A DNA stretch of 19,375 bases from a candidate division WOR-3 bacterium (lineage in GTDB: Bacteria > Hydrothermota > Hydrothermia > Hydrothermales > Hydrothermaceae). Of this stretch, positions 9,001 to 12,000 are shown piece by piece. Every line of letters begins with the position of its first letter. The stretch's first letter is position 1. Position numbers: made by a program. Where the stretch lies: positions 1-19,375 of the forward strand of contig JBDRZD010000035.1 of NCBI GenBank assembly GCA_039803745.1, written 5' to 3'.

Positions 9001-12000
9001 TAAAAACAAGCAGGCTCTCTTTTTACCCACTAAATTATAATTATCAGCATCATCATAGAATACCCATAATGTTTCAATTTCCTCATTTTGTGGAACCGGT
9101 ATTTTAAAGAAAACACCCCTTACAAATTCATAATCAGAGAGAGTATCTTCCTTTGTAAAAGTAGGACTCTTTGTAATCTTTTTAGCCTGTCCCTGCTCCC
9201 TTGAAAGAATACCTTCAAAGGAAGTAGGTCCAAGTTGAAAAACACCCCTTATCCCAAAAAGACCCTTACCACCCGCACCCTGGGAAGAACCCAAATTAAA
9301 TTGAGTATTTCCAGCCTCTATGAGTTTTATAATTTCATCTTCATCACCTTGATATTGTAATTTTACTGTATTTTTATATTGAGCCTCCCTTTCTGAATCA
9401 TGGTCAAGGTTAACCTTTATCTTATTTCCAATTGTTCCAAGAGCGTTTACTCTTAATTTCTGATTCATCTCAGGATGGGGTAAATTTGATGTCTCTGTTA
9501 TTGCTGGATTTCTATAAAGGTCTTTTGTAATGCCAAAGGAAATATCCTGGGAACCTGAAATCTTTATGCTTGCACCTTCACCTATTCCTAAAACTTTTGG
9601 AATAGGAATTGGAATATCAATTTCTGGAATAAGGCCACCTGTCTCTTCAAGCTTTTTCTTAAAGACACTATCCCTTATACTTTTGTAAACAACATCCTTT
9701 TCAATTTTTTCTTCTCTTTCTTCCTTTATCTCTTCAATATTTTTTATTTCTATTTCATGAATGAATTCATTTGCACCTTTATATTTTACATAAAATTCTT
9801 CAAAGAAAATATTTGATGAATCTCTTATATATTGAGAAAGCAATCTATTTTCAAGAGAATCCTGAATCCATAGACTTATAAAAAATATTAAAAAATTCAT
9901 CTTTTATCAAAAAAAATGGATATTAAAAATAAAATTATTATTCCTATTGTTATAGATGAATCAGCAATATTAAAGATTGGCCATCTCAAATTTTCGGAAA
10001 TTCCAATATCTATGAAATCAATAACTGCTTTAAATCTCAATCTATCAATAAGGTTTCCGATTGCACCGCCAAATAAAAGGGAATAGGGAATTATATAAAT
10101 TTTTTTCTTTTCAAAAATCAAAAAAAGAATCAAAATTAAAATTATAATAAGAGCAATAACCTCATAGGGGAACCATTTTGGGAAAGAAATTCCCCATACT
10201 CCAAAGGGATTTTTTATGTATGTAATCCATATATAATTCCCCATAATTTTTAGAGGCTCTCCATAAGGCAATTTTTTTGCCACTATATATTTTAAAATCT
10301 GGTCAATAAAAATTACAAATAAACTGATTGTGAAGAAAATAAAAAACTTATTCTTTAATAAACCCTTCTCTTTTTTCAATTTCTTCCTGACATTTTATAC
10401 AATACCTTGCATATGGAACAGCCCTCAATCTTGAAACTTCAATATTTTTATTACATCTAAGACATACCCCATATTCTCCTCTTTCAATTCTCATAAGGGC
10501 ATCTTCAACTTCTTTGAGGCGTCTATGAGCGCTTGAAGCAAAAATTGAGATCTCCTCTGTGAATTCTTCATTGGATGCCATATCTGCCAAGTGATAAGAG
10601 AATTTCCTGTCACCTGTTTTTTCAAAAATATTTTCTTTAAGTTTTTCCTCTGATTTTCTTAAAATTTTAAGTAGCTTTTCTCTTTCAAGTAAAAGTTTCT
10701 TTTTTAAGGCATTTAAAGTCCTCTCATTCACTTTCCCCCCTTATTTTTTTTATAATTTCATAACATCTTGGACATAGGGCATCAAAATCTTCATCCTTTT
10801 TTAAATTTTCAGAATACATCCAACACCTTATACATTTACTTCCTTTTGCTCTTTTAACAAAAACTTCAATTTTTAAATTTTCATCATAAAGATTCTCCTC
10901 AAAATTAGAAGGTTTTTCAAAGAATACATCAGATACAATAAATATTTCTTTTAAATATTCCTTATATTTTAAAAGAATGTCAATTTCTCCATCAAAATAT
11001 AAGTTTGCTTCAAGGGAGCTCCCTATGATTCCCTTTTGTCTTACATTCTCCAATGCTTTTAAAACTACATCCCTTATATTTTTAATTTTTTCAAAATCAT
11101 TAAATATCTCTTCATCATAAAAATCATAATCCTTTATCTCTTCAAAAAATATGCTCTTTTCTTTTTTACCTGGTATCTTTAAGTATGCTTCTTCGCATGT
11201 AAAACTTAAAATAGGTGAGCCAAAAATAAGGAGTTCCTTTAAAATTATGTAAAGGGCAGTTTGGGCGCTCCTTCTTTCAATTCCCTTTGAATAGGAAACA
11301 TATAATCTATCCTTCAATGCATCAAGATAAAAAGAGGATAAAGTGTCTGAACAGAATGTGTAATAATCTTTAAAGAATTTATGAAATTCAAAATTTTTAT
11401 AGTTTTTTATCCATTCTTCCCTTTTTATTTTAAGTAAAGACAATATGTATTTATCAAAGGGAAGCATTTTTTCAAAATGGACTTTATCTTTTTCTGGATC
11501 AAAATCATAAATATTTCCAAGTATAAATCTGAATGTATTTCTTATCTTTCTGTATATCTCCACATTCCTATTTAAAATCTCATCAGATAATCTCACATCC
11601 TGAGTATACTCTGAAGAGGCAGCCCATATTCTAAGGATTTCGGCTCCATATTTATTACATACTTCAATTGGGTCAATAACATTTCCTAAGGATTTATGCA
11701 TTGCCCTTCCTTCCGCATCAAGTGTCCATCCATGAGTTATACATATTTTATAAGGGCTTTTTTCTCTAAGTGCCATACTTAAAACAAGGCTTGCATTAAA
11801 CCATCCCCTATGCTGATCAGGCCCTTCAATATAGACATCAGATGGCCAGGGAAGATTTCTTTCTTTTAAAACTATAAGACTTGTTAATCCTGAATCAATC
11901 CATACATCAAGAATATCAAACTCCTTTTCAAATTCTCTTGAATTACATTTTTCGCATCTTATATCTTGAGTTAAAAATTCACTCAAATCATGATTTAACC

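Follow-up and report, generated by a model that had tools for sequence, protein, structure and literature searches.

The window, by which we mean the whole stretch of 19,375 nucleotides analysed here, contains on its minus strand a gene of the DksA/TraR family (10348..10731 of contig C35) that starts with GTG and encodes a protein of 127 amino acids (aa). The protein matches PF01258 (zf-dskA_traR; E 3.9e-12, 46.4 bits, cut-off 24.9) and is the single PF01258 match of a genome-wide search, which returned the same finger coordinates. The match spans residues 85-120 (10372..10479, minus strand) and comprises a C4 zinc finger, CxxC-(17)-CxxC, whose cysteines (C90, C93, C111 and C114) are invariant in 18/18 aligned homologues. 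The coiled-coil tip (residues 47-52, H-L-A-D-M-A; 10576..10593, minus strand) has the form HxxDxA, as against DxxDxA in E. coli.

The neighbouring genes lie on the same strand and are closely packed. The 3' end of ileS (10724..13522), encoding isoleucyl-tRNA synthetase (932 aa; PF00133, E 1.9e-113; Anticodon_1; zf-FPG_IleRS), runs 8 bases into the dksA-like gene, which itself ends up to 32 bases inside lspA (9897..10379), the gene for signal peptidase II (PF01252, E 8.5e-33; 160 aa when read from its first TTG). The lspA stop in turn shares 4 bases with the gene of an SprA-like large protein (4507..9900; 1797 aa; PF14349 SprA_N, E 1.6e-15), the final member of the string. On the other side, a gene for a TPR-repeat protein (13523..14221; 232 aa; TPR families, E down to 2.6e-34) abuts the start of ileS with a gap of 0 and is probably the opening gene of the ileS transcript. 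The top-scoring promoter-like site (TTGAAA, 18-nt spacer, TATAAT; 14231..14260, minus strand) sits in the gap upstream of the TPR gene; it is a consensus match alone (11/12), and it is weak evidence because the total for the region, 31 sites against 24.1 +/- 5.0 in shuffled sequences, is not clearly above chance. No terminator-like sites were found on the minus strand between 9500 and 14500, and an Rfam search of the window for a leader or riboswitch of the ileS-dksA operon gave 0 matches.

The order ileS-dksA-lspA recurs at 10/10 gene-bearing loci of the taxonomic order and is shared by Hydrothermus pacificus and 2 Omnitrophota MAGs; the dksA-like gene of other families in the class stands in different contexts.

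The 127-aa protein and E. coli DksA

The AF2 model of the protein (pLDDT 82.6) has helices at residues 3-39 and 55-84, a predicted long coiled coil with a C-terminal helix, and a pLDDT below 50 at tip residues 45-52. Foldseek aligned this model over its full length with DksA2 (4ijj) and E. coli DksA (1tjl), both at TM 0.75, and with chains from RNA polymerase complexes (5vsw, 7khi). A sequence search of the PDB likewise returned DksA proteins, the top match being 6ptg (E 4.6e-11). Within the genus the dN/dS ratio is 0.06-0.14, which indicates purifying selection. The survey's finding that a DksA/TraR-type protein is kept at C35:10348-10731 is borne out by the PF01258 match and by this selection, and the gene is best explained as encoding a DksA/TraR-family factor that is functional and belongs to the YteA/YlyA/Chlamydia-DksA type.

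At the tip, D50 is invariant in 18/18 aligned homologues and A52 is invariant or nearly so. They correspond to D74 and A76 of E. coli DksA, which are the only two of D71, D74 and A76 described as essential for function in the available part of bioRxiv 10.1101/188680, and the position of E. coli D71 is taken by His. The register agrees: 40 residues separate D50 from C90, as they do D74 from C114 in the E. coli chain. The ppGpp contacts of E. coli DksA are R91, K94, L95, K98, R129 and K139 (PMC7676912; 10.1101/188680, available part). In one pairwise HMMER alignment (31 bits), and with contacts mapped solely in E. coli, these align with S67, R70, R71, E74, V105 and Q115, so that 5/6 contact positions are unconserved and positive charge is kept at the K94 position only (R70); K73 adjoins the K98-equivalent position.

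The protein also scores below the cut-offs of all the NCBIfam DksA equivalog models compared (TIGR02420, 58.4/115.5 bits; NF033459, 73/105; NF008045, 31.3/289). Its best NCBIfam model is that of the yteA family (TIGR02890), where 77.2 bits against a cut-off of 134.4 place it outside the family by NCBI's rule. Judged from its sequence, the kept protein most likely needs no ppGpp to act on RNA polymerase: we infer that it binds the enzyme, and this binding would be independent of ppGpp. Its retention is then no paradox, because it is not of the E. coli ppGpp-cofactor type.

RSH enzymes in the genome, order, class and phylum

DksA of E. coli is a small RNA polymerase-binding protein that works with the starvation signal ppGpp. 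(p)ppGpp is regarded as near-universal in free-living bacteria, and the textbook exception is the PVC superphylum. The genome studied here (1.67 Mb, 100 contigs, 93.48% complete, 0.21% contaminated) gave 0 matches at E<=10 to PF04607, the synthetase domain of RelA/SpoT homologues (RSH), in a search that recovered the domain from 12/14 named genomes, including E. coli, Bacillus, Thermotoga and Thermus. The RSH hydrolase domain HD_4 (PF13328) likewise had 0 matches at E<=10 in the genome, and Ppx-GppA was not found there. A class-specific RSH profile, built from 8 RSH sequences of the class and run with --max against the 13,367 six-frame ORFs of the genome, detected no RSH. Its top match (E 0.002) was the TGS domain in a DRG-like GTPase of 342 aa, which also accounts for a TIGR00691 match of 16.3 bits and is not an RSH; the next matches, to guanylate kinase (E 0.04) and to PdxA (E 0.9), were rejected from sequence inspection. 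The survey had reported that this genome encodes no RSH synthetase, long or small, a statement that these searches support. The genome keeps 4 GGDEF proteins and 1 DAC (c-di-GMP and c-di-AMP enzymes), which argues against a general loss of signalling or a failure of the search.

The order is equally devoid of PF04607 (0/11 genomes; 0/8 of the high-quality ones), in agreement with the survey, which had also counted 28/31 genomes of the class without RSH. In our wider sample of the class 8/64 genomes match and 56/64 do not. Among phylum genomes that are at least 90% complete 14/188 match and 174/188 do not, and 170/181 high-quality phylum genomes are without a match. The survey had cautioned that its evidence of absence came from bins. 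Four single-contig genomes (G115, G124, G125 and G126) together with the 3-contig G057 gave a best E of 0.27; one 4-contig genome is likewise without a match. RSH synthetases and RSH-type hydrolases are thus undetectable by these searches in the genome, in its order, in most of the class and in most of the phylum, a supported conclusion that shifts the emphasis of the survey: the absence is a trait of the whole phylum and extends beyond the order.

Two families keep a long RSH of 700-800 aa, as had been stated. It is present in 2/2 genomes of f4 and 5/6 of f5 (7/8 bins together), G021 being the f5 exception. Outside these families the PF04607 matches of the phylum score 38-77 bits, compared with about 150 for the long RSH. 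An RSH assigned to family f10 (G048) is not taken to be native: its contig measures 1.8 kb and comes from an 8%-contaminated bin, and the sequence is 88% identical to an f5 protein and nests within f5. This contig was probably mis-binned. In genus g11, which is without any synthetase, a hydrolase-type HD_4 domain occurs as a fusion with a SAM hydroxide adenosyltransferase. The f4 and f5 proteins share 51% identity with each other and 39-51% with their nearest outside proteins, and they group together (SH-aLRT 91), both on long branches, in a quick tree of 40 rows picked from 138 proteins and 7/8 locus ORFs. They may reflect either retention or an old transfer.

The DksA/TraR finger is found in 167/188 phylum genomes (at least 90% complete) and PF04607 in 14/188; therefore at least 153 have the finger without any RSH. 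The dksA-like gene is absent from families f6-f8 (0/22 genomes), and since it was lost there it is dispensable in some relatives. Gre factors are missing from class Hydrothermia. An Endomicrobium MAG of about 1.0 Mb with a related DksA is also without RSH.

The nearest named relative of this heat-loving bacterium is Hydrothermus pacificus (WOR-3 / Caldifarciminota; 77% identity), and the lineage, named through this relative and not by genome placement, most likely belongs to class Hydrothermia of that phylum. The survey had called it free-living. The phylum indeed has an axenic pure-culture isolate, its only one (strain sy37, NBRC 116057 / Caldifarcimen microaerophilum), which uses yeast extract alone for growth and doubles in 10 h (PMC12285271); for the bacterium itself a free-living lifestyle is what we infer. 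RSH-less free-living phyla are already known from the PVC superphylum, and the trait is not unprecedented: the available part of Atkinson et al. (2011, PMC3153485) counts zero RSH genes for each of Planctomycetes, Verrucomicrobia and Chlamydiae. Our literature search found nothing joining WOR-3 with ppGpp, and did not find the stringent response together with WOR-3, Stahlbacteria, Caldipriscus or Hydrothermae. Two WOR-3 genome papers mention none of ppGpp, stringent, SpoT and DksA, and the portion of the Jimmy 2020 supplement that was available has no WOR-3 or Hydrothermae rows.

A DksA/TraR-type factor that probably acts without an alarmone

Direct observation covers the gene, its fold (as an AF2 model), the selection on it, its synteny and the RSH-domain absence over the phylum. 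Taking these together, we hold it to be probable that the lineage has lost the RSH system, makes no (p)ppGpp and keeps a functional DksA/TraR factor coupled to ileS/lspA. The loss would include the entire system (synthetase, hydrolase and GppA), and because of it (p)ppGpp is most likely not produced, as far as gene content can tell. The 127-aa factor would be translationally coupled to ileS and lspA, and its dosage would for that reason follow the ileS-lspA operon.

It is extremely improbable that an RSH gene is present and was missed in incomplete bins or on unbinned contigs. The genome, in 100 contigs, has a completeness of 93.48%, most of the genomes compared are bins, and single misses do occur, as shown by G021, which is without the RSH of its five f5 congeners, and by the f5-like RSH contig that landed in the f10 bin. 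However, the domain is also missing from the high-quality genomes of the order (0/8), from 170/181 of those of the phylum, and from four single-contig, one 3-contig and one 4-contig genomes, and where an RSH exists (f4, f5) it was recovered in 7/8 bins. An enzyme beyond the recognisable RSH family might instead make (p)ppGpp or an equivalent alarmone, with the DksA-like protein as cofactor. The finger in 167/188 phylum genomes, under strong selection, and the HD_4 domain kept by g11 without a synthetase would suit this explanation, and an unknown or unrecognisably divergent family would be invisible to sequence searches. We nevertheless consider it rather improbable: all ppGpp synthetases known so far are RSH proteins according to the available parts of Atkinson 2011 (PMC3153485) and Jimmy 2020, the genome has neither an RSH hydrolase nor GppA to clear the product, 5/6 of the E. 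coli DksA ppGpp-contact positions are unconserved, and Chlamydia, on the same part of Atkinson 2011, too keeps a DksA-type protein without RSH.

If the 127-aa protein were a zinc-finger partner of IleRS/LspA functions and no transcription factor, its tie to ppGpp would be accidental. The tight, overlapping ileS-dksA-lspA arrangement in the order and in 2 Omnitrophota MAGs, the ileS-ylyA pair of Bacillus, the scores under every NCBIfam DksA cut-off and the three Bacillus homologues whose single knock-outs left rrn P1 unaffected (PMC3113569) can all be read in this way. The modelled fold, which matches DksA over its full length (5vsw and 7khi chains included), the (nearly) invariant tip Asp/Ala that acts near the active site, and the differing gene context in other families of the class speak for a transcription factor, and we regard a role confined to IleRS/LspA as quite improbable. 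We give slightly less credit still to the view that RSH loss is ordinary genome reduction in partner-dependent organisms, by which 'free-living without ppGpp' would be overstated. Class genomes are small (1.2-2.4 Mb), the sole isolate grows on yeast extract only with a 10-h doubling time (PMC12285271), and the Endomicrobium MAG is small as well as RSH-less; but that isolate is an axenic pure culture, phylum genomes of 3.0-3.9 Mb (G168, G172 and G173) are without a PF04607 match, and others of 3.4-4.7 Mb (G169-G171) have weak matches only, in short or odd ORFs. Moreover, the small thermophile genomes of Thermotoga, Thermus and Persephonella keep Rel, and the genome studied here keeps its c-di-GMP and c-di-AMP enzymes.

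Retention of a DksA/TraR factor after loss of the RSH system, the reading that we prefer, could be extended to a wider scheme that we consider unlikely in its joint form. WOR-3 bacteria would control starvation without ppGpp, the DksA/TraR-type protein would be the only secondary-channel factor of Hydrothermia, and its ileS-coupled dosage would act as the signal, or else a non-RSH synthetase would await discovery. Owing to its translational coupling with isoleucyl-tRNA synthetase, the factor would convey the state of growth and aminoacylation to RNA polymerase through its own dosage, in place of a nucleotide alarmone. A second, unrelated and thermophilic RSH-less phylum would show that the loss is no oddity of PVC bacteria, in a phylum that nearly always retains a DksA/TraR-type factor. 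It would also offer a small-genome and now culturable system (sy37) for studying starvation signalling without an alarmone and the action of DksA-type proteins alone, and the lack of Gre in the class gives its RNA polymerase an unusually simple secondary-channel biology that is attractive for biochemistry.

Comparison with known systems

The PVC superphylum resembles WOR-3 as a phylum-level group without RSH; it has zero RSH genes, its free-living members included, according to the available part of Atkinson 2011. Unlike PVC, WOR-3 / Caldifarciminota lies outside the genome sets in that part of the study, and the class has two families that bear a long Rel. Among 101 Omnitrophota genomes sampled, 6 had PF04607 matches over the cut-off and none had a long-RSH-like match. 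DksA of Chlamydia trachomatis is an 'orphan', Chlamydiae having zero RSH in the available part of Atkinson 2011 (PMC3153485), and it fails to complement an E. coli dksA mutant (PMC9126822). The chlamydial protein contains a single Cys, is devoid of zinc and is encoded next to nrdR (PMC9126822), whereas the 127-aa protein has all four Cys and its gene stands between ileS and lspA. The two proteins share the tip H-x-A-D (6PTG), as opposed to D-x-x-D.

The RNA polymerase of Bacillus is not known to be a direct target of ppGpp. The B. subtilis DksA homologue ylyA adjoins ileS (PMC5282499; PMC3113569), as the dksA-like gene does here; the role of YlyA is in spore germination (PMC5282499), which is inapplicable to this bacterium. 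Single knock-outs of the B. subtilis homologues yteA, yocK and ylyA left rrn P1 activity unchanged (PMC3113569).

E. coli DksA (1TJL, 5VSW) is alike in its fold (TM 0.75), its C4 zinc finger and the Asp/Ala register of its tip. It is unlike the protein described here in length (151 aa vs 127 aa), in its first tip Asp, which is replaced by His here, and in R91, L95, K98, R129 and K139, where the 127-aa protein has S, R, E, V and Q. TraR acts without ppGpp. The TraR of the F-plasmid (6N57), in the available part of 10.1101/188680, is a secondary-channel factor of the DksA/TraR family with the equal tip Asp and Ala; unlike the 127-aa protein it has about 72 aa and one coiled-coil helix, and its fold match is weak (E 0.74). 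By analogy, TraR is proposed as a functional model for the 127-aa protein.

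RSH synthetases in the genome and its phylum

The survey's finding that the genome encodes no RelA/SpoT homologue (RSH) synthetase domain, and that the gene is missing from all 11 genomes of the order, was borne out. The RelA_SpoT domain (PF04607) had no match at E ≤ 10 in the genome (93.48% complete, 0.21% contaminated; control hits in 12/14) and was found in 0/11 genomes of the order (0/8 high-quality). The HD_4 hydrolase domain (PF13328) likewise had no match at E ≤ 10 in the genome, and Ppx-GppA was not found there. A class RSH profile, made from eight RSH ORFs of the class and applied with --max to 13,367 six-frame ORFs, recovered from the genome only a guanylate kinase and the TGS domain of locus L043. 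This locus (L043:652-1680(+), contig C17) encodes a DRG/Obg-like GTPase of 342 aa that carries the TGS domain at its C-terminus, and is the sole part of the genome touched by any RSH model; a TIGR00691 match was rejected as an RSH because it touched only the TGS domain of this DRG-like GTPase. The genome does have four GGDEF domains and one DAC domain, so the gap is specific to the ppGpp system.

PF04607 was matched in 8 of 64 genomes of the class and in 14 of 188 phylum genomes that were at least 90% complete (high-quality: 11/181). The ten phylum matches outside the class lay in ORFs of 232-1018 aa and reached no more than 38-77 bits, compared with about 150 bits for long RSHs. In four single-contig genomes (G115, G124, G125 and G126) and one of three contigs (G057), the best matches had E-values of 0.27 and 1.6 and were dismissed as noise, lying in ORFs of 59 and 79 codons. 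The lack of RSH is genuine and extends further than the survey had it; absence of the domains is no proof of absence of (p)ppGpp, and most of the genomes are bins.

Two families do keep an RSH of 700-800 aa, as the survey had also stated: f4 (2/2 genomes) and f5 (5/6). The protein is of the bifunctional type, with HD_4, RelA_SpoT and TGS domains. The RSH of f5 shares 51% identity with that of f4 and only 39-51% with anything beyond its own cluster, and a quick tree joined the two on long branches (SH-aLRT 91). The lone match in family f10, an RSH fragment on a 1.8-kb contig (G048:C71, locus L001), is probably mis-binned, given that the bin is 8% contaminated and that the fragment is 88% identical to the f5 protein and nested inside f5 in the tree. 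In genus g11, which lacks an RSH synthetase, a 419-aa fusion protein joins a SAM hydroxide adenosyltransferase (SAM_HAT_N and SAM_HAT_C) to a (p)ppGpp-hydrolase-type HD_4 domain (L075:222-1478(+) on G032:C88; also on G031:C57).

The DksA-like gene and its product

The only PF01258 (zf-dskA_traR) match in the 1.67-Mb genome is the DksA-like ORF at 10348-10731(-), which starts with GTG and encodes 127 aa (residues 85-120, E 3.9e-12, 46.4 bits; cut-off 24.9 bits). It is overlapped by 8 bases by the 3' end of ileS (10724-13522(-)), and its own 3' end overlaps lspA (9897-10379(-)). A TPR gene abuts ileS upstream. An Rfam search of the window returned no family match, and no terminator-like site was found on the minus strand between 9500 and 14500. 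On these grounds, the DksA-like gene most likely shares a transcript with ileS and lspA, and its translation is most likely coupled to theirs. The coupling of lspA to a 1797-aa SprA-like gene of type IX secretion (4507-9900(-)) is also tight in this WOR-3 genome, with an overlap of 4 bases at the lspA stop. The same-strand string rsmF, TPR, ileS, dksA, lspA, sprA is headed by a 1032-aa ORF (15662-18760(-)), which, like a 313-aa ORF (2681-3622(-)), has no Pfam match at E ≤ 0.001.

Within the genus, dN/dS of the DksA-like gene is 0.06-0.14. From an alignment of 18 sequences, AlphaFold2 predicted long helices at residues 3-39 and 55-84 together with a zinc-finger region and a C-terminal helix (mean pLDDT 82.6); the model's top structural matches are DksA2 of P. 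aeruginosa (4ijj) and DksA of E. coli (1tjl), each with a TM of 0.75, followed by the DksA chains of RNA polymerase complexes 5vsw and 7khi. The ORF is a real gene under selection, with a predicted DksA fold. The four cysteines and the tip aspartate (D50) are unchanged in 18/18 homologues. The yteA family ranked first in NCBIfam, with 77.2 bits against a cut-off of 134.4, and every DksA equivalog remained under its cut-off.

The best sequence match in the PDB is DksA of Chlamydia trachomatis (6ptg, E 4.6e-11), which has the tip pattern H-x-A-D in common with the DksA-like protein, whereas E. coli DksA has D-x-x-D; the chlamydial protein does not complement E. coli dksA (PMC9126822). In a pairwise alignment, the tip aspartate and the first cysteine are 40 residues apart in both the DksA-like protein and E. 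coli DksA, so that D50 and A52 correspond to E. coli D74 and A76, which are required for DksA function according to a passage of 10.1101/188680. Passages of PMC7676912 and 10.1101/188680 name R91, K94, L95, K98, R129 and K139 as the E. coli residues by which ppGpp is bound at site 2; these align with S67, R70, R71, E74, V105 and Q115. This single pairwise alignment, together with E. coli biochemistry, suggests that the DksA-like protein could act in the secondary channel without an E. coli-like ppGpp site.

DksA-type and Gre factors across the phylum

The PF01258 finger occurs in 167 of 188 phylum genomes and any RSH domain in 14 of 188; the distribution of the DksA-type gene does not follow that of RSH. 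The class loci (L045-L074) fall into two DksA/TraR sequence types. Type A, whose tip reads S-(Y/F/D)-H-(L/M)-A-D, usually neighbours lspA and was found in the order, in f4 and f12, and in two Omnitrophota MAGs; in type B, found in f3, f5, f10 and f11, the tip is the canonical D-x-x-D-x-A and the gene lies away from lspA. The RSH-positive families have both types (f4) or type B only (f5), and the RSH-negative families have type A, type B or both, with both reported for f12; neither type was found in families f6-f8 (0/22 genomes). The order ileS-dksA-lspA is kept at 10/10 gene-carrying loci of the order, in H. pacificus and in the two Omnitrophota MAGs, and ileS likewise adjoins the DksA homologue ylyA in B. 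subtilis (PMC5282499; PMC3113569).

GreA_GreB was not found in the genome at E ≤ 0.001; GreA_GreB_N reached only E 0.05, within a 1008-aa open frame with a cyclase-like motif recognized by eye. In the class, GreA_GreB exceeded the cut-off in 3/64 genomes. In phylum genomes with a completeness of at least 95%, it was present in 0/27 within the class versus 62/82 outside, there mostly at the end of an open frame of 490-806 aa. A Pfam scan of one such protein (687 aa, L081:2446-4506(-)) placed GreA_GreB_N and GreA_GreB at its C-terminus. Of the 64 class genomes, one has a relative of this long protein, encoded on a short contig in a bin that is 75% complete; this relative has no homologue in the genome studied here. 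The class as a whole seems to lack Gre transcript-cleavage factors; if so, the DksA-like protein would be the sole recognisable secondary-channel factor of the genome.

Lifestyle and comparison with RSH-less bacteria

Gene order is the same in 'Candidatus Hydrothermus pacificus' JdFR-72, a member of Caldifarciminota according to NCBI (identities: DksA-like protein 77%, IleRS 77%, LspA 69%). The name Caldifarciminota dates from 2026, when it was published for Caldifarcimen microaerophilum (PMC13722131). Strain sy37, reported in 2025 as the first WOR-3 bacterium in pure culture, grows axenically at 70 °C on yeast extract with a doubling time of 10 h (a section of PMC12285271) and was assigned to class Hydrothermia (a section of PMC12542636), which is probably also the class of the window. 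The first-author surname in common suggests that sy37 and C. microaerophilum are one strain. With an axenic isolate, the free-living state claimed in the survey holds for the phylum; for the present genome we infer it.

In a sample of Omnitrophota, PF04607 exceeded the cut-off in 6/101 genomes, and a long RSH-like protein was found in 0/101. In four of the Omnitrophota genomes (G285, G297, G301 and G309; e.g. G297:C1:374981-375286), giant open frames of 18,962-44,145 codons enclose weak RelA_SpoT-like matches of 17.7-26.9 bits; that of G285 reaches the cut-off only together with neighbouring matches in frame.

Excerpts of a survey of 24,072 genomes place RSHs in 'most phyla'; the rows listed from its table include Caldisericum exile with one Rel, and among them is no WOR-3 or Hydrothermae (Jimmy et al. 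2020, PMC7229694). In the literature searched, which excluded subscription journals, WOR-3, under this or its other names, was never linked with ppGpp or the stringent response, and two WOR-3 genome papers (PMC12285271, PMC12542636) leave the topic unmentioned. According to Atkinson et al. (2011, PMC3153485), RSHs are lacking in Planctomycetes, Verrucomicrobia and Chlamydiae, the last being listed with zero, and elsewhere mainly in endosymbionts. On this comparison, the finding adds WOR-3 to a kind already known: one more RSH-less phylum whose DksA-type factor is an orphan, like that of Chlamydia.
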